A stretch of 64,000 bases of DNA from Spirochaetota bacterium (GTDB lineage: Bacteria; Spirochaetota; UBA4802; UBA5550): the NCBI GenBank assembly GCA_963663865.1, contig OY760686.1, forward strand, positions 2,080,001 through 2,144,000, written 5' to 3'. The notes under the pieces are model-generated. The model saw nothing but the letters and a program-made list of their open reading frames with translations. It was not told the DNA's origin and ran no database searches. Made by a program: the position numbers and the translations under genes. Below are positions 52,445 to 64,000 of this stretch, in pieces. Within the stretch, counting starts at the first letter, position 1. Every line of letters starts with the position of its first letter.

Positions 52445-53707
52445 CTATCTCAGAAAATCCATTAATGTTGGTCTTATTGTTTTTGCTCCAACTGAAAGCG
52501 CATACTGATGCACAGTCTGAAGCCACTGAAAATTCATTATTGACTCCGCGTAATCAATTCCCTCTGTCTTTGAGACCATGTCGAGAACGTATCCTTTCTC
52601 ATATTCACTTCTTCTTGAGAGCTCGTCCGCTCTTGACTGTTTTGCACCGACCGCGGCCGTATGCCTCAGTATGTTATCGAGTGCAAGGTCTATTAGACCA
52701 AGATCCCTACCGCCTACGAGCTCCTGATCTCCTCTGACCAGGTCATCCCTCAGTGTAATCACGGCTTCAAAAATTGACATGCCTCCCACGCTTGCGGTTG
52801 CGTCAAAATTGTTGGGAGGGTTGGGAAACTCTGTGCTTATAATTCCAAGACTCTGAAGCACGGTACCCGCTCCAACATCCTCCAACCATAGCTGATGAGG
52901 AGAAGTAGATTCCATTATCAGATTGTTCAACCCGCCTCTGGAGGCCCTGACGCTTGCACCGGAATTGTTGATCTTATCTATTATAATATCCAGATTGTCG
53001 CCTGCCGTAACAGAAATCTCCTTCCCGTCTATCCGTATTGTCTGATTGGACGGAGCTGAATACGCAGATGAATCTCTATTCGCGCTGATTGTCTGATTTG
53101 TAGCCCAGAATATCTCGTTTCCTGGAATATTAACATCCAGATATTCTCCCTTGGCAACCTCACGCATCTGCCTTCCGGTGTTCCCTCTGTACTCAACACC
53201 GATCATCGCATCTCCCTGATTTCCTGCCGTTAAAGTCTGATATATCGGCACAAAAGGATCGGGAATCTCCTCTGTACCGCGTTGAAAGCCTCCGAATATC
53301 GGCCTGCCTGTGGCACCCTTCGTGTTCGCTATAGCCACAAGTTCCTTCAGGAGCTGATTTATCTCGGTTGCGGCGGCCTCTTTCGTCTCAAAGTTGGAGT
53401 ATATCCCGTTTGCGCCTTGAACCGCGAGGGTCCTTATCCTCTGGAATAGCCTTAATGTTGACTGCACAGCTGTATCAGTTTCGTTTAGCCTGGATTTTGC
53501 CTCATCAATATTGCTTATGTACTGTCCAATCTCCGTGAGCCTGCTGTTATAGATCATCTGATTCGTGGCGGCTATCGGATTATCCCTCGGCATTGTCACA
53601 CTTTTGCCGGTCGCGAGCGAGTTCTGCAGCCTGTCCATCTCGCCCTGCTGTCTGGTCAAATTGTACATCATTGTATTGTTAAGCATCTGATTCGTTACGC
53701 GGTTCAT
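52445..53707 (-). CDS. flgL: Flagellar hook-associated protein 3
   Basis: RVTNQM, LATGK..PRDNP, AVQGANGIY, C-terminal PTLMDFLR. Confidence 0.93.
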   Translation of the reverse strand: MNRVTNQMLNNTMMYNLTRQQGEMDRLQNSLATGKSVTMPRDNPIAATNQMIYNSRLTEIGQYISNIDEAKSRLNETDTAVQSTLRLFQRIRTLAVQGANGIYSNFETKEAAATEINQLLKELVAIANTKGATGRPIFGGFQRGTEEIPDPFVPIYQTLTAGNQGDAMIGVEYRGNTGRQMREVAKGEYLDVNIPGNEIFWATNQTISANRDSSAYSAPSNQTIRIDGKEISVTAGDNLDIIIDKINNSGASVRASRGGLNNLIMESTSPHQLWLEDVGAGTVLQSLGIISTEFPNPPNNFDATASVGGMSIFEAVITLRDDLVRGDQELVGGRDLGLIDLALDNILRHTAAVGAKQSRADELSRRSEYEKGYVLDMVSKTEGIDYAESIMNFQWLQTVHQYALSVGAKTIRPTLMDFLR

Positions 53708-53708
53708 A

Positions 53709-55613
53709 TCAGACTCCCATTCTAATTATTGTCTCAAGCATCTTATCCATTGTATCAATCACCCTTGCGGCAGCATTGTATCCGTGCTGAAACGCCACCA
53801 TGTTGGCCATCTCCTCGTCGAGATTTACGCCGGAAACGGATTCCCGCATATTTGTCAGATTTTTAAGGAGGGTATTCTGGTTTTCAACCCTGTCCTTTGC
53901 CTCTTCGCCCTGTGTACCAAGCTTTGCCACAAGTGATACGTAGAAATCATTAAATGTTGTTTTCCTGTCGACCATGCCGTTTTTATGCCTGATAGCGGCG
54001 ATTTCCAGAGCGTTGTTTCCGTCTCCGATTCCGTTAGTCGTATTATAATCGCCCGTTCCGCCAATATCGTTTCCTTTCGCTGCAGCTATCATATCTACAT
54101 CGTACATAACGCTGTCAGAAACAGCCATATTCGCCGCCGGATTCCCTTTCGGAGTAATTGTTATATGCTCTCCCGGGGCAAGAAACTTTGAAATATCATT
54201 GAGCCTTCTATAGTCAAATGCACCCTCAGCGCCGGACTGCTTCAGGACGCCTGTAAGTCCAACAAGAAACTGTCCCGAATCCTCTAAACGTCTCATGATG
54301 AAGTTTTTTCTGTCATCGTCTTCAGCAGTAGTTGCCTTCAGCGCGATATGGCTATTGTGGTCCAGATAGGCTACAACACCGGCGCCGGAATCATTTATCT
54401 TTCGTATAACAGAGTTAACGGTGTCGTTCTGATTGTAATCCACAAACACTGGAGTCTCAACTTCATTGTTTCTTGAAAATGTCAGAGTTCCTGTGACTCC
54501 TATTGCGGCTGAAGCATCTATTCGATTGCTGCCGGACACCTTAAATACCGCTGTAATCTCTTCAACTCCGTCATTATTGAGGTCATAGTTCCCTACCGGA
54601 CTGTCGCTTGCAGTCAGATGCCTAAAAAAGTCAACATTCGTATCACCACGCCTTCCAAATCCGTCCCTGTGAACTTCGTTTGTCATGTCGGTTATATTTA
54701 CAGCAAATGAGTCAATATCATTCATGTTCTGTCGGAGAATCACATCGCGCACCTCTATAAGGCCTGCAAGGCTTCCCCCGCTTACTTCTACATTTGTACC
54801 GGTGCCTGCCCATTTAACCCCGAAGAACCCTCTGTTGGACGTGTCCTTAACAGCCTCAAGCGGCCTTAAAACCGGCCCCTGTATCATGGTCTCTCCGCCG
54901 ACATAGACCATCAGCTCATCCTTATCGCTTCTACCGACGCTGATGTTTATTTTTTCCGACAGTTTTTCTACAAGTGCGTCACGCCTGTCTTTCAGGTCGT
55001 TGGGATTATCTCCAAGCGCTTCAGCCTTCATTATTCGTTCATTCAAATCACGAATATCACGCGCGAACATGTTGATCTGCTCAACCTCGTGGAACACCTG
55101 TCTGTTCGCGTTTTCTCTTATATCTGAAAGCTGCCTGAAAACTGCGTTAACCTCATTTGAAAGGTTCACTGCTTTCTGCTTAACGACTTCACGGCCTGAG
55201 CGCTCTTCCGGATTTTTAGATAGCTCCTGCCAGGCCGCCCACAGCTGATCGAGCCTGCTTCGTATTGACTGATCTGACGGCTCGTTATATACCGCCTCAA
55301 TCTGATAAATAAAGCTGTCCTTTGTGTTCCAGTAACCAAGCGAGTTCTTTTCAACCATTATACGGTCATCTATGAACGCGTCTCTGATTCTCTCAACTGA
55401 TGATACGACTGAACCCTGCCCTATGTTTCCCGGACTATTCGCCCGGTTCAGCGAAGGTACGTAGAGCGGATCAGCTGAACTTATAACAACGCGCTGCCGC
55501 GAGTAGTCCTTATTTTCCGCATTAGATATATTATGGCCGGTTGTATGAAGCGCCTGCTGATGACTCATCAGTCCTCGCTTTCCGATTTCCATGCCCATGA
55601 ATGTTGAATTCAT
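53709..55613 (-). CDS. flgK: Flagellar hook-associated protein 1
   Basis: STFMGMEIGKRGL, GHNISNA...YSRQRV, NDLKDRRD, SGVNLDEEMANM. Confidence 0.96.
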   Translation of the reverse strand: MNSTFMGMEIGKRGLMSHQQALHTTGHNISNAENKDYSRQRVVISSADPLYVPSLNRANSPGNIGQGSVVSSVERIRDAFIDDRIMVEKNSLGYWNTKDSFIYQIEAVYNEPSDQSIRSRLDQLWAAWQELSKNPEERSGREVVKQKAVNLSNEVNAVFRQLSDIRENANRQVFHEVEQINMFARDIRDLNERIMKAEALGDNPNDLKDRRDALVEKLSEKINISVGRSDKDELMVYVGGETMIQGPVLRPLEAVKDTSNRGFFGVKWAGTGTNVEVSGGSLAGLIEVRDVILRQNMNDIDSFAVNITDMTNEVHRDGFGRRGDTNVDFFRHLTASDSPVGNYDLNNDGVEEITAVFKVSGSNRIDASAAIGVTGTLTFSRNNEVETPVFVDYNQNDTVNSVIRKINDSGAGVVAYLDHNSHIALKATTAEDDDRKNFIMRRLEDSGQFLVGLTGVLKQSGAEGAFDYRRLNDISKFLAPGEHITITPKGNPAANMAVSDSVMYDVDMIAAAKGNDIGGTGDYNTTNGIGDGNNALEIAAIRHKNGMVDRKTTFNDFYVSLVAKLGTQGEEAKDRVENQNTLLKNLTNMRESVSGVNLDEEMANMVAFQHGYNAAARVIDTMDKMLETIIRMGV

Positions 55614-55622
55614 TGAAATCTC

Positions 55623-56126
55623 CTATGCCGTCTGGTTAAATAGTATTGATCCGGATACCGCGCTATTTTCCTTTCCCTTGCTGTCATACCCCGATTGTAT
55701 TGATGTACTGTTTTTCAGTCCATCAATCATAATGTTGAAATACTCAAGGTTGTCAGAGATCAGTTTTGAGTTAGCATTCTTGAGCCTCTCTAGTTTTACC
55801 AGCAGCTGTTTCAGACGCCTTCCTGTCTCATGAAGGGTTTCAGCATCTTCTCCAGTAGTTCTGGCCAGTATGTCAGAAAAAACAACATCTTCGCCGCAGG
55901 GGAACATGGTAAAATGTTTTTCAACAAGTTCGCTTCTCTCTATTTCAAGCCGGCTTATCATTTCAAGAATTCTCTCCTGCTCAATGGACAGACGTTCGAG
56001 CTCTCTCCCGTCGCGCGACGTTACAGCTTCAGTCTTTTCCTGCTCAAGGCAGTAAAGGCTTGAATAGAGTTTTATATCCTCGGAAAAAATCCTGTTAAGC
56101 TCTCTGGCTGGAGTTAATGTCCGCAT
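55623..56126 (-). CDS. flgN: Flagellar export chaperone FlgN
   Basis: Helical; LE.ER, N..LI, Y...G; first gene before flgK. Confidence 0.8.
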   Translation of the reverse strand: MRTLTPARELNRIFSEDIKLYSSLYCLEQEKTEAVTSRDGRELERLSIEQERILEMISRLEIERSELVEKHFTMFPCGEDVVFSDILARTTGEDAETLHETGRRLKQLLVKLERLKNANSKLISDNLEYFNIMIDGLKNSTSIQSGYDSKGKENSAVSGSILFNQTA

Positions 56127-56289: not shown

Positions 56290-56985
56290 CTAACTGCCGG
56301 ATTCGCTGATCTGACCGTCAATAATACTGACTGTTTTGCCGGTCATTGACGCAAGCTCCATATCATGGGTGACAATTACAACAGTAAGCCCGTATTCCCT
56401 GCCCATCTCGAGCAAAATACCGGCAAGGTTTTTGGAATTGCTGCTGTCGAGGTTGCCTGTAGGCTCATCCGCCATTATAATATCCGGCCTGCCGATTATC
56501 GCCCTTACCACAGCGGCGCGCTGGCACTCACCGCCTGACATTTCCGAAGGTTTATGATCAGCTCTGGAGGAAAGCCCAAAGCGATCCAGCATCTCTGAAG
56601 CAGCCTTCTTTGCTCTGGACCACTTTTCTCTTCTTATCAAAAGAGGAAGCATGCAGTTCTCAAGAGCGGTAAACTCGGGCAAAAGATTATGGGTCTGAAA
56701 CACGAAGCCGACATGCCTGTTTCGGAAGCCTGAAAGATCCTCAACAGAAAGGCTGCTTACATCCTTCCCCATTACCTCAAGACGGCCGCTTTCGAATGAA
56801 TCAATACATCCAAAAAGATTAAGAAGGGTCGACTTGCCCGCTCCCGACGGACCGACAATCGAAACCGATTCGCCCCTCATTATCTCCATTGATATTCCGC
56901 GGAGAACCCTTATAGTATTATTTCCGTATCCGTAATACTTCTCTATGTTTTCAGCTGAAATTACCGCTTCGCTGTTCTGACTCAT
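56290..56985 (-). CDS. lolD: Lipoprotein-releasing ABC ATPase LolD
   Basis: GPSGAGKST, GFVFQTHNLLPEFTALEN, MSGGECQR, ADEPTGNLD, VTHD; follows lolC/E. Confidence 0.88.
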   Translation of the reverse strand: MSQNSEAVISAENIEKYYGYGNNTIRVLRGISMEIMRGESVSIVGPSGAGKSTLLNLFGCIDSFESGRLEVMGKDVSSLSVEDLSGFRNRHVGFVFQTHNLLPEFTALENCMLPLLIRREKWSRAKKAASEMLDRFGLSSRADHKPSEMSGGECQRAAVVRAIIGRPDIIMADEPTGNLDSSNSKNLAGILLEMGREYGLTVVIVTHDMELASMTGKTVSIIDGQISESGS

Positions 56986-56994
56986 TAAACCCTC

Positions 56995-58299
56995 TCACTC
57001 ATACCTTATTGTCTCCACCGGATTCTGCCTTGATGCCTGCCATGCCGGAAAAATTGCCGCGACGGTGGAAAGAAATACGGCAAATATCGCGATAAACACC
57101 ACAAATTCAGGGCTAACCTCTGTCGGAATTGAATCAATATAATATACGTGAGTAGGAACAATACTGATCTTGTAAAATATTCCCATATCAAAGAATTCGT
57201 ATATTCTCGCCCCCAATATATTGACCCACTTCTCTACACATATTATTATTGCCTCAAGATTTAAGGAAGCAGCCAATCCAGCCACCACACCGGAAATCGC
57301 GCCGAACAGGCCGATTAGAAATCCTTCAAGTACAAATATCACCATAATCGACGAAGGCCTGGCTCCCATTGACTTGAGTATTCCAACCGCTTTTTTCTTT
57401 TCCATAACTACCATCACCAGGGTTCCCATTATGGTGAAACCTGCTGAAACTATAACAAGAAACAGTATAATTGTCATTATCAGCTTTTCGAGTTTAAGTG
57501 CGTAAAAAAGGTTCTGGTTCTTTTCTTCCGCGGTCATCGTTACGTAGTCATAGCCCGCGGCCTTGCTCACAGCCTCATTTGTCCGCTCAAGCCCGGAATA
57601 GACGTCCTTTACCTTAACTGCTATTCCCCATGCCACATCACCCACCTGGAACAGCTTCTGAGCATGCGGAAAGGACATGAGTATCAGCTTTGTGTCAAAG
57701 TCATAATACCCTGTCTTAAAGAAACCGAGCACCCTGTATTTGCCAAGTCCCGGAGTTACCCCCTCCGTAGCGGTCAGCCTTCCGCGTGGAACAATTACTT
57801 CAATGTATTCATTTTGCTTTATACCGTTAGTTATCGCCATCTCGGCGCCTATGTAGACCCCGCGTTCCTTTGTATACTTATCCTTTCCCTCTGTTATAAA
57901 TTTGCTTACATCCTCGGGAATGAAATCAGGCGTTCCGGCTCCACGTATCATCACATAGTTAATATTGGTTCTGTGCCTCAAAAGGCCCTGCCCCTGAATA
58001 AATGGATAGGCCGAGCTGACGCCGTCAACGCCGGAGATCTTCTGAGAAAGCTTTCTGTAATCCCTGATAGCACCACCCTGAGTACCATAAAGTGCATTAA
58101 CGGTGATATGTGAATCAATGTCGAGAATCTTGTTCTTGATCTGTGATTGAAAACCGTTCATCACGGAAATGACCACAATAAGAATAAAAACACCCAGTGA
58201 TACGACAAGTATTGACAGCAGGGTGTTAAAGGAGATGAACCCCTGCATTTTTTTTGATTTTAGATATCTGAATCCTATAAAAAGCTCAAAAAGTTTCAT
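56995..58299 (-). CDS. lolE: Lipoprotein-releasing permease LolC/E
   Basis: IGFRYL, SVMNGF, GYYDFD, LKSMGA, YYIDSIP, PAWQAS...PVETIRYE. Confidence 0.9.
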   Translation of the reverse strand: MKLFELFIGFRYLKSKKMQGFISFNTLLSILVVSLGVFILIVVISVMNGFQSQIKNKILDIDSHITVNALYGTQGGAIRDYRKLSQKISGVDGVSSAYPFIQGQGLLRHRTNINYVMIRGAGTPDFIPEDVSKFITEGKDKYTKERGVYIGAEMAITNGIKQNEYIEVIVPRGRLTATEGVTPGLGKYRVLGFFKTGYYDFDTKLILMSFPHAQKLFQVGDVAWGIAVKVKDVYSGLERTNEAVSKAAGYDYVTMTAEEKNQNLFYALKLEKLIMTIILFLVIVSAGFTIMGTLVMVVMEKKKAVGILKSMGARPSSIMVIFVLEGFLIGLFGAISGVVAGLAASLNLEAIIICVEKWVNILGARIYEFFDMGIFYKISIVPTHVYYIDSIPTEVSPEFVVFIAIFAVFLSTVAAIFPAWQASRQNPVETIRYE

Positions 58300-58313
58300 T
58301 ATTTCCGCCCGGA

Positions 58314-58754
58314 TTAAATATTGACCTCGGTTAAAGTCCTGTTGAACATAAGCCACCCCTCTGAAGAGCGCTTCTCGGAATACTTTATCATTGAAACCGA
58401 GCCGTTCATTTTTCTGACCCGCTTTCCAGTTTTACGTGACACAACATAGCACTCAAAGCTGACTTCTCTGCTCCGGAAAAGATTTCCTTCGTGATCCTTT
58501 TGCTGCTCTCCGCTGTCTTTCCGCTCTGATTCAATGACAGTTAAATCATCGTAGTAAAAATCCCGGTAAATCTCAGCAAATACAGCAGCCTGCTTAGGAA
58601 AAGCCTCGCATGAGCGGTAAAGCGAATGGTTGAGCTGCTTTATCGCCAGGGCCCATTTTGCAAGAACCCTTGAAGGCTCTTCAAATTCGGGAGGTTCCTT
58701 GCACGAGAGCAATAAAGGCATGACCATTAAAGCCAGTATAATGATTTTTTTCAT
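58314..58754 (-). CDS. Putative lipoprotein
   Basis: MKKIIILALMVMPLLLSC lipobox at the corrected start. Confidence 0.7.
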   Translation of the reverse strand: MKKIIILALMVMPLLLSCKEPPEFEEPSRVLAKWALAIKQLNHSLYRSCEAFPKQAAVFAEIYRDFYYDDLTVIESERKDSGEQQKDHEGNLFRSREVSFECYVVSRKTGKRVRKMNGSVSMIKYSEKRSSEGWLMFNRTLTEVNI

Positions 58755-58809
58755 TCGCTTCCTGCCAATTCTCTTGTGATAATATATAAACAAAACAATT
58801 CTGAACAGC

Positions 58810-59364
58810 TCAAGCCTTATCCCCGAAGACGATCGCGGTAAACTTTTTAATTGACGTCCCTTCACTCTTCCAGGCATCCCCCGGCAGTCCGGCCTTCAGA
58901 CAAGTGTGGTACAGAAACTGCTCCCTGTTCCAGCCGTACTCAACGGCAACCTGCGGCAGAAGAAGACCCTGTGAAAACTCCCTTGAAATAATGAGACCGT
59001 CCCTTCCCACTACAACATCCTCAATGCTTGAGACATCTTCCAGAGGAGTCAGCACCGAAATCTCAATGTCAATGCCCGGATATTCATCTTTACGCAGAGG
59101 CTGAAACCTTGGGTCCCTGAAGGCTGCCGCAATTGCCATTTCCTCTACGGTTTCCGCAAGACCTCTGACTCCTGTAATATATCCGATACAGCCTCTCAGA
59201 TTTTCGTCCAGATGAATCGTGACAAATGCTCCGCACTTCTTCTGAAAAACATCGTCACTCAGGTCAGGCTTCAAAGATGGCCCTTCAACGCCAAGCCTCT
59301 GAGCTATGACCGCCCTCGCGAGCACGCAGAGCGATTCCTTCTGCTGCAATGTAAGTTCCAGCAT
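58810..59364 (-). CDS. amrA: AMMECR1 / AmmeMemoRadiSam system protein A
   Basis: GAFVT...LRGCIG, AAAFRDPRF, IEISVLTP, GLLLPQV, CLKAG. Confidence 0.93.
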   Translation of the reverse strand: MLELTLQQKESLCVLARAVIAQRLGVEGPSLKPDLSDDVFQKKCGAFVTIHLDENLRGCIGYITGVRGLAETVEEMAIAAAFRDPRFQPLRKDEYPGIDIEISVLTPLEDVSSIEDVVVGRDGLIISREFSQGLLLPQVAVEYGWNREQFLYHTCLKAGLPGDAWKSEGTSIKKFTAIVFGDKA

Positions 59365-59575
59365 TTCTCCCCCCAATTCAAACGCAGCGGCCGGGGTAAG
59401 GCGCACCAGTCAACGCGTTTTGTGGCGAACAGAATTCAATCCAGATAAACCTCTCACTCAGTCCGCTGTTGTCAACCGAAAAGACGTCAGCAATTCAAAA
59501 ATGGAAAGCATCTTTCTATTGTGGGGGGATATCGGCCTCTACCACTCAGGTCAGAGGCCGAGTAATGCGGAACTC

Positions 59576-60805
59576 TCAGTAGAAAGAGATGGTAGCAAGC
59601 GCACCTGCGTACAGGTCGGAGCCCTCCTTGCTGCCGCTGAAATCCTTCATATAATCGCGGTAAGCTATTGAAGGAGTAAGGGCTATCAGGCCTCCAATGT
59701 TGAACTTGGCGTTTATATAGTACTCGATGGCATAGTCCCTATCGGTTCCCTCCATGGGATAATCAGTCATAGAAAATCCGCAGCCGGCAAACAGTGTAGT
59801 CTTCTCAAGCAGAGGCAGAACATATCCGACTTCCGCGTAGGATTGGACATTCCAGGTATCCTTTATCTCGTATTCACCGGTAGCGTCGTTTCTAATCGCA
59901 GCCGCAGCACCTCCGCGGTAGTTGCTGTTGCCCTGTGTCTGAACCTTTAGTCCATAGTTCGCGGGATTAACCGAAAAGCCGCCGCTGAAGTTAAATAGAA
60001 AATCCTCTGCCTGCAGCTCAGCGTAAGCGTAAGTGATATAGGATATTATCCAGTCTTTATCGTACCTTACATCTCCGGTGTTTGTAATCTTGTATGCGTT
60101 GAAAGCCGCGCCTATACCCAGAACATTCTCCTTCGCCTTGAACTCATAGCCCAGAGCTGTTTTCGGCAGGAGCGATTTTATCTTTGACTCCTCCTGTCCA
60201 GTCGTTATTTCCCTCTTGACCTCAATGAGATTGTACTCATCGTAAGCCGGGTCACCTGACGAAGTAGGATTTGACGCAATAGTGTCGTCGTAGGTAGTCA
60301 TTGTGGAAACATTGGGCTGAATAATGTCTATATAAAGACCAATATCTGACGAGAGTTTCAATTGAGTCGCAAGGCTGTCATACATAGCGCCAAAGCCCTC
60401 GGATCTGTGATAGTTCGCCGCTTCATGCGACCACCTTGTATAAGGCGTCCAGTCCTGTCCGATCATAAGTTCGCCGCCGCCGAATTTATAGACACCGAAT
60501 GCCTTTCTGACAATCACCCTGCTCTCATCCTCTGAGTCGCTTACTCCAAGTTCAAATACTCCGTGATACTTCGAGTAGTTAAAGTTGAACCCGATATTGC
60601 TGTTTTCATTAATCCGGTAAATCGTGTCCTTCCCGGTCTCCTTTGTCCCGGCGGCATCGAATTCCTCAGACTGTTGATATCCGAAAAAAACAAAAAGATT
60701 GCCGTAGGGTTTAATTGAGTTTCCCGACTGCGCTGACGCACTGCCCGCCGCGGCAAAAGCTGCTGCAGCGGCAATAAAAACCTTTAACTTGCTCTTGAAT
60801 TTCAT
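59576..60805 (-). CDS. Outer-membrane porin-like beta-barrel protein
   Basis: Signal peptide (ASA-Q), SNIGFNF, ELG, RKAFGVYKFGGGELMIGQDW, C-terminal ATISFY. Confidence 0.7.
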   Translation of the reverse strand: MKFKSKLKVFIAAAAAFAAAGSASAQSGNSIKPYGNLFVFFGYQQSEEFDAAGTKETGKDTIYRINENSNIGFNFNYSKYHGVFELGVSDSEDESRVIVRKAFGVYKFGGGELMIGQDWTPYTRWSHEAANYHRSEGFGAMYDSLATQLKLSSDIGLYIDIIQPNVSTMTTYDDTIASNPTSSGDPAYDEYNLIEVKREITTGQEESKIKSLLPKTALGYEFKAKENVLGIGAAFNAYKITNTGDVRYDKDWIISYITYAYAELQAEDFLFNFSGGFSVNPANYGLKVQTQGNSNYRGGAAAAIRNDATGEYEIKDTWNVQSYAEVGYVLPLLEKTTLFAGCGFSMTDYPMEGTDRDYAIEYYINAKFNIGGLIALTPSIAYRDYMKDFSGSKEGSDLYAGALATISFY

Positions 60806-60836
60806 GGAGTGTCTCCTGTTAGTTCATTAATATGCT

Positions 60837-62678
60837 TTATTCTTCAGGCAAACGGCCTTTCTTTTTTGTGTACAGCGCCCTTGATAAAATCTTTCTGTGT
60901 TCTCCGGAACTCTCTTCCTTGAGAAGCCGCTCAATGGCTTCCCTGACTCCCGGATATTCTCTGTTCCTGAGCAGATACCTGTACATTGTACCGCGTACAA
61001 TGTCATTGTCTTCATTTTCAGCGGAGCTGATTACAGCCTGCACCACCCGATCATCAGGCACATTCTCAATAAGTGAAGTAACTATAGTATTTCTAACATT
61101 CACATTGTTTTCTGTCTCCAGGGCATCGGCAAGCATGCCGTTTGCCCGCGGTGTTTTTATGGCGCCAACCGCCGATGCCGCGGCGCTTCTGACTCTGAAA
61201 TCCGGGTCCTTCACATATCTCGCTACGTCGTCGAGCATCTTGCTGTCGCCGGTATTCCCCGCTGAGTGAATCAGAGCCGTCTTGATGTTGACATCAGCCG
61301 AGCTGTGAAGCTCGCTCCGAATTCTGCCCTTGATTCTGTCGGATATTTTCGATTTATCACTTTGTGCTGCACTCGCGGCCGAAGCTGCCGTTCCGAGGGA
61401 CAGAACGGCCGACGTTCCTACGGACACATCGCCTTCTGCGGCCTCAAGAGCCCGTGCAGAATCGAAGGCTTCCCATAACGAGTCGATAGAACCCTCGCTG
61501 TGTTCAGACACAAAGCCGAAGGAAACAGCAGCCTGAACCCGGCCCGGCCCGGAGATTTCCCTGTCATGCATGATATTCGAGAGCGCCCGCTGTGATTTTT
61601 CACTTCCATTCCTTCCCAGAGCGTGGACAAGCATTGCCTGATGCACCGGTATGAGTTTGACAGTCTTGATGTATTCATGTATCTCCGATGCTGACTCGGG
61701 CCTGAGTTCAAGGTATTTCATTATCATTGCTATTGCCGCCGCGCTGAATCCCGGATTTTCCCTGAACAGGCCGTCTATTATCATTTTCAAAGGCTTATCC
61801 CCGAAGAGTTCCCTGAATCGGCTTTCCCTGATATAATCGTCAGATGAATCTCGGTTCTTCTCATGATAACCCGGGCCTGCTGTTACTATTAAATCAGTGT
61901 CTAATGCAGACGAAGATAATGAAGCAGGCGGCTTAATATATGTAACATTTAAAGACACAGAAGTTGAAACCTTAAAGTAAGGCTCATCCCCCTGATAAAA
62001 AACGAGAAGCTCTTCACCTTCCGCTCCCGCCACCCACGGAGACCTGTCCTTAAAATCAAAGGACATCCTGGACTTTTTAACTTCAATCCTGTTTTCGTTT
62101 TCGGTTATATATTCTATTTTTTCCTTTGAAACACGGCTGCCTTCAATGCGGTAAGAAGCGCTGTAATACCCGTTGGTGTCCGCCTCCTGAGTCTCCCACC
62201 TTCCAAATATAGGGTTGCCGTTTACAAACTGCAAAGTCCTCATAATTCCGGAAAGAAGTTCACGGTCGCGGTCACTCATCCCTTTCATAAATCCAAAGGA
62301 TACAAACCTTCCGCTTCGGTCAATATCCGCGGTAAAAGGGGACATGTAAATTCGCTTAAGCTCATTGCTGTTTACGCCTCCGAGCCTCATTTCAAGCTCT
62401 GAAAACTGAAAACGCGTCCTTACAACATCACGTGAGGTATCAACAATGATGAAATTCAGAAAACCGTGCATCTCGAGATTTTCGCGCATATCGGAAATTC
62501 CCGGTTTATCCGCAAGCATGGCGACTCTAAGCTTTAAAGAGTAAACAGCTCCTGAATTTACCGTAAAGTCGAGCCTGACGCCATCTCCCTTGAAGGCAAA
62601 GAAGAGTAAGGCAATTGCGGCAGCGCCTGCTGCCGCAAGGAGATAGATTGCCCTTTTTTTTAAAGTACCTGACACCAT
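60837..62678 (-). CDS. Membrane-anchored protein with vitellogenin/MTP-like N-terminal beta domain and HEAT-like helical domain
   Basis: N-terminal TM; EADTNGYYSASY; AVLSLGT; IHSAGNTG; RVRSAAASAVG; GGAG RBS before ATG 62678. Confidence 0.7.
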   Translation of the reverse strand: MVSGTLKKRAIYLLAAAGAAAIALLFFAFKGDGVRLDFTVNSGAVYSLKLRVAMLADKPGISDMRENLEMHGFLNFIIVDTSRDVVRTRFQFSELEMRLGGVNSNELKRIYMSPFTADIDRSGRFVSFGFMKGMSDRDRELLSGIMRTLQFVNGNPIFGRWETQEADTNGYYSASYRIEGSRVSKEKIEYITENENRIEVKKSRMSFDFKDRSPWVAGAEGEELLVFYQGDEPYFKVSTSVSLNVTYIKPPASLSSSALDTDLIVTAGPGYHEKNRDSSDDYIRESRFRELFGDKPLKMIIDGLFRENPGFSAAAIAMIMKYLELRPESASEIHEYIKTVKLIPVHQAMLVHALGRNGSEKSQRALSNIMHDREISGPGRVQAAVSFGFVSEHSEGSIDSLWEAFDSARALEAAEGDVSVGTSAVLSLGTAASAASAAQSDKSKISDRIKGRIRSELHSSADVNIKTALIHSAGNTGDSKMLDDVARYVKDPDFRVRSAAASAVGAIKTPRANGMLADALETENNVNVRNTIVTSLIENVPDDRVVQAVISSAENEDNDIVRGTMYRYLLRNREYPGVREAIERLLKEESSGEHRKILSRALYTKKKGRLPEE

Positions 62679-62679
62679 T

Positions 62680-63999
62680 CTACTCCGAATCAGAGGTATC
62701 GAGAGGCTGCAGGTTCTTGTCCTGAAGGTCAATCCAGTTGGTAGAAGTCAGATTCTCATAGTCATCTGAAGCAAACGTCAGAAAATCCATCTCAAACAGA
62801 GGGATTGAGAATGATGAATAGCTGTAAATCTCTTTTGACCACCTTTTTGTAAAGAGTACAAAGTTGATCTCAAAGTAGATGTCAATGTATCCGGCCGGAC
62901 CGGTAAGATAGAGTCCGACCTCCCTGTTAAGAGTTCCCTTTATTTTCCCCTCGTTTTCTCCTGTGCCCAACTCCGTAGTGGTATAGCACTTCTGTGAAAA
63001 GTCAAGTGTCACCACGTCCATGTAGGTGTATAGACCGACTGAGGCAAGGCCTGCAATGCTTGCGCTGGCGTCAGCCTGAGCGCTTCCCAGAAGCTGCATT
63101 GTCTTGTCGACAAGAAGGCTGCCGTCCTCGTTCACGTTCAATGTTAGACCCGGAGTAAAAGTCGCCTCTACACCGGCCTTCAGGGTAAACTTGAAGCAGT
63201 AGTACCACTGGACCTTCTCGAATTCCTTCGTGAACAGCACTATAGGATAAGACCAGTTGTTTTCTGAAAAGCCGCCAGCCGATTCCGATAGAACGACCTT
63301 GCTCGCGGCCTGCACATTCATCTCAAACCCGGAATTCTTAATGTCATAGGGATGGGACTGGGCATTCAGGTAGGTGTTTATCAGGCTCACTCTGTTGTTG
63401 AAAACATAAGCATCTGCATGGACTCCGAGGCTGTAGAGACTGTAGTTGTAGAAGAACATTCCTTCATGCGCCTCAGCCCCGGCTCCGAAGCTTTCATCTC
63501 CCACAGCGAACTCAAAGCCGTCCCAGAAGATAACGATGCTTCTGTAATCAGGGTCCTTCGGGTCCATTTTGCAATACGGGTATGTCTTGATTCCGTCATT
63601 CGGAGAAACCTCTACCTTTTCCAGAGTAAAAACAAGGTCCTCGGATTTGGAATTGTTTGAAGATGATATCTCCCTGCCGGCGTCTCCATCCTGATAGTAA
63701 TCGTCTTCCGAGTACTCGGAGTTATCCTGATTCGGAGAAATAAAGCGTGATTCCTGAACAGAGCCCTCAGGGTTAACAACGGCCTCAATTGTAAACTCAT
63801 GAGAACCGTAATCAGCGGCGCCCATTGAGTGGCGCAGATAACTCAACGGATAATCCTCTTCGAATGAAGAAGGAGGCTCTTCGGGCCATGCCTCGTAGTC
63901 GCTGAAGTAGTTGTAAGCTCCTCTGTCATCAGGAATGCGCAGACCCACAGTAATGCGCTCAGTCGTATTTGCCTTCAGTATTGGTATATAATAGGTCTC
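62680..63999 (-). CDS. Large beta-rich protein, 3' part only (CARDB-like domain then amphipathic beta-sheet region)
   Basis: Frame open to the window edge (ETYYIPILKAN...); AVVNPEGSVQES...DN CARDB-like; GDESFGAG...FTKRWSKEIYSY. Confidence 0.7.
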   Translation of the reverse strand, partial: ETYYIPILKANTTERITVGLRIPDDRGAYNYFSDYEAWPEEPPSSFEEDYPLSYLRHSMGAADYGSHEFTIEAVVNPEGSVQESRFISPNQDNSEYSEDDYYQDGDAGREISSSNNSKSEDLVFTLEKVEVSPNDGIKTYPYCKMDPKDPDYRSIVIFWDGFEFAVGDESFGAGAEAHEGMFFYNYSLYSLGVHADAYVFNNRVSLINTYLNAQSHPYDIKNSGFEMNVQAASKVVLSESAGGFSENNWSYPIVLFTKEFEKVQWYYCFKFTLKAGVEATFTPGLTLNVNEDGSLLVDKTMQLLGSAQADASASIAGLASVGLYTYMDVVTLDFSQKCYTTTELGTGENEGKIKGTLNREVGLYLTGPAGYIDIYFEINFVLFTKRWSKEIYSYSSFSIPLFEMDFLTFASDDYENLTSTNWIDLQDKNLQPLDTSDSE

Positions 64000-64000
64000 A

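Follow-up and report, generated by a model that had tools for sequence, protein, structure and literature searches.

Does a bacterium carry the front half of an animal lipid carrier, with the rest of that carrier encoded as a separate chain? This question is raised by the last 4.4 kb of a stretch of 64,000 nucleotides, here called the window, from a Spirochaetota bacterium (contig OY760686.1, positions 2,080,001 to 2,144,000). The open reading frame (ORF) list of this region holds three co-directional genes on the minus strand, which we call A, B and C. A reading of the DNA made from its letters alone, hereafter the sequence-only reading, had described them as an operon of a beta-rich protein, a coupled protein with a transmembrane anchor and a porin-like gene, and had proposed that the first two form a two-chain relative of the large lipid transfer proteins (LLTPs). 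All three ORFs are present as described, and a fourth gene, Z, which that reading overlooked, lies just outside the window, the whole Z-A-B-C set being a four-gene envelope cassette. Protein B resembles the N-terminal module of the animal LLTPs (MTP, vitellogenin/lipovitellin and apoB), and it is probably homologous to this module. We further propose that A and B may form a two-chain LLTP-like module holding lipid or another hydrophobic cargo, which together with C and Z would handle it between the membranes; to this reading as a whole we give a probability of about one half.

LLTPs are treated as animal proteins in the parts of the literature that we draw on here, and a search at the level of titles and abstract openings returned no paper on bacterial LLTP homologues. 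The smallest of them is MTP-alpha (6I7S, 8EOJ). According to the sections of PMC6717300 on which we rely throughout this text, MTP starts with a barrel (residues 21-297) whose strands surround a central helix, continues with a helical domain (298-603) and ends with a lipid domain (604-884). The helical domain is a clamp on one side of the C- and A-sheets, the C-sheet lining the clamp's C-terminal part, and half of the A-sheet is packed against the barrel. MTP is suggested there to be the oldest LLTP.

Gene B occupies positions 60837..62678 of the minus strand, stop codon included. The ORF was listed as 60837-62732, and its likely start is the ATG at 62678, which has GGAG ahead of it; this start gives a protein of 613 aa, which matches the 612-aa relative P0001. 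The fold of B was modelled by AlphaFold with an alignment of 101 sequences, at a pLDDT of 92.5 and a pTM of 0.82 (a single-sequence model, with a pLDDT of 50.7 and an unresolved barrel, was discarded). In this model, B starts with a hydrophobic helix (residues 5-28, positions 62595..62666, minus strand), a membrane anchor or an uncleaved signal, which is preceded by KKR and falls in a hydrophobic stretch that is conserved in the family alignment. Then comes a beta-barrel domain of eleven strands and two helices (residues 43-247, positions 61938..62552, minus strand, as defined by DSSP on the model), and finally a helical domain of 19 PBS-type HEAT-like helices (residues 279-603, positions 60870..61844, minus strand), which is also recognized by the Vitellogenin_N and HEAT_2 families. 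These domain limits fit those of MTP given above, and B can be described as a membrane-anchored LLTP-like front module.

When the model of B was compared to known structures with Foldseek, ranks 1 to 11 were all LLTPs, namely MTP, lipovitellin, apoB100 (including the entry for its barrel) and honey-bee vitellogenin, and the artificial alphaRep HEAT proteins appeared from rank 12. The MTP match has an E value of 1.6e-16 and a TM score of 0.56-0.58 by query length, and the lipovitellin, vitellogenin and apoB100 matches range from E 4.9e-12 to 7.7e-8. With VIA-align, residues 34-613 of B were superposed on residues 24-633 of MTP, with 509 residues aligned, barrel included; only LLTPs match both domains of B in the right order over this length. 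Among the defining features of LLTPs, B has the beta-barrel domain at the N-terminus, the two-layer helical domain directly after it and a Vitellogenin_N match at the gathering score, but its chain does not include the lipid-binding A- and C-sheets, and it lacks the barrel disulfide. That B has no lipid-cavity sheets had been seen in the sequence-only reading; its last residue, 613, comes just past the helical domain, at the point where LLTPs go on into their lipid-binding sheets. Since B has the fold and the Pfam match of LLTPs but not the sheets or the disulfide, it is best termed an LLTP-like split module and not a member of any of the animal subfamilies.

The comparison with each of the relatives makes this clear. 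Like MTP-alpha, B consists of a barrel and then a two-layer helical clamp, matching MTP in size and order; unlike MTP, it ends after the helical domain, its sheets being perhaps provided by a separate lipoprotein, it has no cysteines and no PDI partner, it is anchored in a bacterial envelope by an N-terminal membrane helix, and its gene shares an operon with those of an outer-membrane protein and of a lipoprotein of the TAXI type. The lipovitellin/vitellogenin and apoB100 group (1LSH, 9ENR, 9E9R, 9BD8) shares the N-terminal module with B by fold, by profile and by Pfam, but these are animal-secreted single chains of 1000-4500 residues with large lipid cavities or belts, whereas B has 613 residues and no sheet domains. 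The HEAT proteins of the PBS-lyase type (HEAT_2, alphaRep) are similar to the helices of B over residues 459-600, but the generic ones have neither an N-terminal barrel nor Vitellogenin_N (0 of 9).

The sequence of B leads to the same place by a longer way. As a single sequence, B matches nothing in the PDB except the alphaRep proteins (E 5.5e-20), and its HEAT_2 match is strong (E 9.6e-17), residues 459-600 being typical repeats of that type; with single-sequence matches of this sort, a generic HEAT signal is the rival to beat. The Pfam Vitellogenin_N family (PF01347) is nevertheless found in B at E 1e-9, with 38 bits for a cut-off of 24, although this match is limited to the helical half of the profile (positions 334-586 of 590). 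This family does not follow HEAT repeats in general: it is found in none of nine strong generic HEAT-repeat proteins according to their precomputed Pfam lists, while it is present in P0001. These controls came from a homologue search with the B family alignment, which, like a search with B itself, returned almost only HEAT-repeat proteins. PF01347 is also absent from all 14 control genomes. Within the family, 16 of the 40 relatives of B that were scanned pass the Vitellogenin_N cut-off, and in one of them (P0023) the match covers profile positions 89-579 of 590 and runs into the barrel. In public databases, bacterial proteins of this kind already carry the Vitellogenin_N label.

The profile built from the 101 sequences connects B to the animal proteins over both domains. 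It matches MTP chain 8eoj_B at E 3.1e-13, profile positions 122-586 being aligned to chain positions 129-603 in one collinear stretch (about 465 positions), MTP chain 6i7s_G at E 1.1e-12, again in one stretch, and lipovitellin 1lsh_A at E 1.4e-10, positions 121-506 to 90-507 in one stretch (about 385 positions). Three independent profile alignments run into the barrel with a consistent register. Together with the Foldseek ranking, the profile matches to MTP and lipovitellin bear out the claim that B is similar to the front of an LLTP and is not just a generic HEAT protein. The motifs that the sequence-only reading had compared with LLTPs are all found in B, with EADTNGYYSASY at residue 165, AVLSLGT at 424, SAGNTG at 472 and VRSAA at 496, and they overlie columns that are at least 90% conserved in the 101-sequence alignment (G170, Y176, L426, G429, A472, N475 and R497). 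The conserved W..E.D..G.Y.A.Y motif is situated in the barrel domain.

The barrel and the helices belong together in a large number of bacterial proteins. A search with the N-terminal 308 residues of B, which leave out the HEAT part, against 1.84 billion cluster representatives returned 176 clusters (at 50% identity) at E values of at most 0.001, 30 of them at E values of at most 1e-10. Nearly all of these relatives are about 600 aa long, and none exceeds 696 aa among the 150 matches listed. As proteins found through their N-terminal part are mostly of that length, the barrel-plus-helices architecture is that of a conserved family. In the ESM Atlas, B is placed beside clusters of Bdellovibrionota, Bacteroidota, Myxococcota and Pseudomonadota, in which 40-75% of the members carry Vitellogenin_N.

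The candidate for the half that B lacks is the product of the gene directly upstream. Gene A had been described as truncated by the window; it is indeed cut at the window end, and in the whole genome it encodes, as had been overlooked, a full lipoprotein of 736 aa. Its 3' part (residues 298-736 of 736) is found at positions 62680..64000 of the minus strand, and the gene starts outside the window, at the window-equivalent position 64890. The TAG stop of A and the ATG of B at 62678 are separated by one base, an arrangement of translational coupling. Protein A has a lipobox (...FFPAAG|C) with its lipoprotein cysteine at residue 28. About 270 residues make up its N-terminal part; they are followed by an acidic linker of low complexity and, starting near residue 416, by a C-terminal domain rich in strands (residues 416-736, positions 62683..63645, minus strand), which is the candidate in-trans partner of B. 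That A ends in amphipathic strands, as the sequence-only reading had it, agrees with the composition of its last 321 residues: the fraction of 9-residue windows that are beta-amphipathic is 0.073, against 0.022 after shuffling (z 3.2, a value reached by 1 of 300 shuffles). This domain has 32 relatives at 47-100% identity, and A is better conserved than B between the genome of the window (G000) and that of another spirochaete, G178 (66% versus 34% identity). A weak ESM Atlas lead for A, at 0.83, is below the level from which such a score counts as more than a lead.

A complex of the two proteins, a prediction that had been suggested along with the two-chain proposal, was modelled from residues 30-613 of B and residues 416-736 of A, each with its own alignment. 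The A-B pair has ipSAE values of 0.82, 0.82 and 0.84 (median 0.82), against 0.00 in all three controls, and the mark used for this score is attained by 116 of 157 solved complexes and by 2 of 215 mismatched pairs. Agreement of the contacts across runs is at least 62%, and the pLDDT of A is 66-68. The confident contacts are all on the helical domain of B, where they involve alternate helices within residues 311-593, and on the side of A they involve alternating residues of its strands. Given that A is predicted to sit on the inner helices of B, the description of the clamp in the sections of PMC6717300 used here makes this placement the LLTP one: in the model, the beta domain of A lies along the clamp's inner face, which in MTP is occupied by the C-sheet and one side of the A-sheet. 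The C-terminal domain of A is thus a candidate, on the strength of this model, for the LLTP sheets that are missing in B.

The association of these genes is also seen in other genomes. Among 201 sampled genomes of the phylum that were searched for A and B, full-length B is found in three (G000, G083 and G178), and A is matched in exactly those three. Another 19 genomes have partial matches to B, almost all of them within profile positions 294-602. A is adjacent to B in five loci, and the complete Z-A-B-C order recurs with unrelated flanks, twice in G178 and once in a Spirochaetota metagenome-assembled genome (L033). Four more relatives of B appear, as the data indirectly suggest, to be on a contig shared with a relative of A. 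A related-loci search with P0004 provided one more spirochaete locus, while two metagenome scans (with P0020 and P0009) returned no related loci and a tblastn search of plasmids returned no match.

Two of these genomes deserve a description of their own. G178 holds two complete and diverged cassettes, whose proteins are 34-66% (L029, G178:C14) and 32-47% (L030, G178:C20) identical to those of the window. In G083, the locus is a variant (L031 7357-12359, G083:C16) that consists of a 780-aa A-like lipoprotein, then B, then an unrelated exported protein of 239 aa, with no Z or C. The A-like protein is homologous to A over its N-terminal 300 residues according to hhalign (E 1.6e-12), and its C-terminal part shares short motifs with A by eye.

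The two remaining genes of the cassette point to the cell envelope. Gene C (positions 59576..60805, minus strand, 409 aa) follows B after a gap of 31 bases, with AGGAG 8 nt ahead of its ATG. Its product has a signal peptide ending in ASAQ, amphipathic windows of strand-like character (z 3.0) and the C-terminal end ...ATISFY; its match to Porin_4 is weak (E 0.018, 15.3 bits for a cut-off of 27). An outer-membrane barrel would agree with both the signal peptide and the ...SFY/SYY terminus, and C is a putative porin-like outer-membrane protein. Orthologues of C, 47-59% identical, follow B in three other loci; none of these three matches a Pfam family, and the C profile matches nothing in the PDB. 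Strong matches to C are confined to genomes with the four-gene cassette, and weaker paralogues (E 1e-13 to 1e-21) are found in three other genomes, a distribution that suggests that C belongs to a local family of outer-membrane proteins and was recruited into the cassette. Gene Z, the first of the cassette, is upstream of A on the minus strand (G000:C1:2144887-2146905, or L032 12888-14906), and its stop abuts or overlaps the start of A, the start codon of A not being fixed. Its product, a lipoprotein of 672 aa, carries two stretches that belong to the TAXI family of solute-binding proteins (NMT1_3 at E 1.6e-32; TIGR02122 with 109 bits for a cut-off of 84), and its counterparts in the three other four-gene loci are 40-56% identical to it. 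No TRAP membrane gene was found among the scanned neighbours of Z in L032.

If we put these elements together, B would be held at the inner membrane by its N-terminal helix, with its barrel and its two-layer clamp exposed in the periplasm. A would place its strand-rich C-terminal domain with one face against the inner helices of the clamp, and the sheets of A, if this domain does adopt such a fold, could enclose a hydrophobic cargo with the clamp of B, as in MTP. C and Z might then connect the A-B carrier to the outer membrane and to a ligand, and the module would take up, hand over or deliver its cargo between the two membranes, although the cassette itself encodes no energy source for it.

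Several observations weigh against this proposal, and we gather them here. Concerning B, much of the sequence signal that connects it to LLTPs may come from its HEAT-like helices. Indeed, the 101-sequence profile matches the artificial alphaRep proteins far better than any LLTP (E 2.5e-60), and profiles of the barrel only and of the front only (residues 1-455), made from five spirochaete sequences each, matched no LLTP in the PDB, so that the relation of the barrel to LLTPs rests on the fold and on the long collinear alignments. B also contains no cysteine, a point that had been overlooked, and therefore it cannot have the barrel disulfide which is conserved in MTP, lipovitellin and apoB according to the sections of PMC6717300 used here. 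Concerning A, no Pfam, NCBIfam or PDB match was found, its profile gave nothing below E 0.25 in the PDB, and an LLTP lipid-domain Pfam family is found in none of 31 A members, which show scattered noise only. Concerning the complex, no confident contact was reported between A and the barrel of B, the domain that half of the A-sheet contacts in MTP. The predicted interface residues are not more conserved than the others (1.51 versus 1.46, p 0.50, for B; 3.17 versus 2.99, p 0.10, for A), nor are they enriched in hydrophobic residues, and the score of the complex may stem from the memory that the predictor has of solved LLTPs. What stands of the two-chain proposal is thus A as the partner of B, by coupling, co-occurrence and the predicted complex; the link from A to known LLTP lipid domains, by PDB or by Pfam, was not found.

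The strongest competing explanation accepts the identity of B and changes its function. In MTP, the front module is a protein-binding platform for apoB and PDI and lipid binds to the C-terminal domain, again according to these sections of PMC6717300. B could likewise be a true LLTP-type front module that serves as a protein-binding scaffold, and the cassette would then encode a nutrient-capture or envelope-organising complex in which B tethers C, Z and A to the inner membrane. The fact that HEAT repeats are common as protein-binding surfaces, as the alphaRep matches remind us, and the lack of a sequence relation between A and LLTP lipid domains go in this direction. However, A is predicted to dock, with alternating contacts along its strands, at a site that corresponds to that of the lipid-pocket sheets in MTP, its C-terminal domain has, at about 300 residues, nearly the size of the lipid domain of MTP (604-884), and A is more conserved than B, which parallels the observation in PMC6717300, within the same sections, that the lipid domain is the more conserved part of MTP. 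We find a pure scaffold possible, if somewhat unlikely, next to the cargo-holding module that we favour.

A different role can also be imagined for A, whose Gly/Ala-rich and amphipathic C-terminal domain could be a membrane-inserting or pore-forming beta domain, with B as its periplasmic holder or chaperone. The strands of A are amphipathic and rich in Ser, Ala and Gly (for example over residues 601-620), A is lipid-anchored, and an outer-membrane protein is encoded alongside it. Yet A has no match to pore-forming families in Pfam or in the PDB, and the predicted complex buries one strand face of A against B, which makes this role improbable in our opinion. That the likeness of B to LLTPs could be due to convergence, or to a generic HEAT signal with an unrelated beta domain in front, with no common descent and no shared mechanism, we regard as more improbable still: artificial PBS-type HEAT repeats are indeed the strongest sequence matches, the five-sequence profiles do miss the LLTPs and the VIA-align Z score is higher for alphaRep (about 21) than for MTP (17.6), but LLTPs alone match both domains in the right order over the 509 aligned residues, they fill the first eleven Foldseek ranks, the three profile alignments reach the barrel in a consistent register and PF01347 is missing from the generic HEAT proteins.

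The lipid transport systems of the bacterial envelope include Lol, Mla, Lpt and the AsmA-like/TamB proteins. The task that we propose for the A-B module, moving a hydrophobic cargo between the inner and the outer membrane with a membrane-anchored periplasmic carrier and an outer-membrane partner, is similar to theirs; unlike these systems, the cassette contains no ABC transporter, and no family of theirs matched A, B, C or Z. One may go further and imagine that diderm bacteria possess a machine for handling lipids that is so far undescribed, shares its descent with the animal LLTPs and keeps the clamp (B) and the pocket (A) on two chains. The two-gene form could then be ancestral, gene fusion having later produced MTP, vitellogenin and apoB, and in spirochaetes it would have acquired an outer-membrane channel and a receptor of the TAXI type, making an envelope-spanning route of lipid uptake or delivery independent of Lol, Mla, Lpt and the AsmA-like proteins. 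This broader scenario is speculative and, taken in full, unlikely.

A widespread bacterial family with an LLTP front module would mean that this machinery arose in bacteria, an origin that would then be open to testing; the breadth of the family is indicated by the 176 barrel-region clusters and the four phyla of the Atlas neighbours. If A and B do bind lipid, they would be a new class of periplasmic lipid carrier in bacterial envelope biology, and the two-chain form would be a small bacterial system in which to study how the clamp and the pocket of LLTPs cooperate. What the present locus contributes is a spirochaete version of four genes, which include those of an outer-membrane protein and of a lipoprotein of the TAXI type.

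Finally, the surroundings of the cassette had been brought into the argument through lolE and lolD, noticed close to the porin-like gene. Such genes are there: a lolD/lolCE-like pair is found at 56290-56985 and 56995-58356 (56290-58356 overall), 1.2-3.3 kb downstream of the cassette, and although both genes score below the NCBIfam cut-offs, these families are their best matches. We rejected a functional tie to them because the flanks are not conserved and differ in the four other loci. The conservation of the neighbourhood concerns the Z-A-B-C or A-B order, which recurs, and does not extend to lolDE, which is unlinked to the cassette in related loci. The same is true of the other neighbours, the AMMECR1-family and flagellar genes being also unlinked to the cassette in the other loci. 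The former is an AMMECR1 / AmmeMemoRadiSam system protein A gene at 58810-59406 of the window (minus strand), directly downstream of C (TIGR04335, E 4.9e-54), and its ORF overlaps the next one, an unmatched ORF of 187 aa at 58314-58877. The latter (52445-56126, minus strand) adjoin the lolD/lolCE-like pair and encode a flagellin-like protein (420 aa), FlgK (634 aa) and FlgN (167 aa). On the other side, upstream of Z and outside the window (L032 15084-18280), are the genes of a GHL10-family glycosyl-hydrolase-like lipoprotein (394 aa) and of a 646-aa protein in which a BamB-like PQQ propeller is joined to an OmpA-type peptidoglycan-binding domain.

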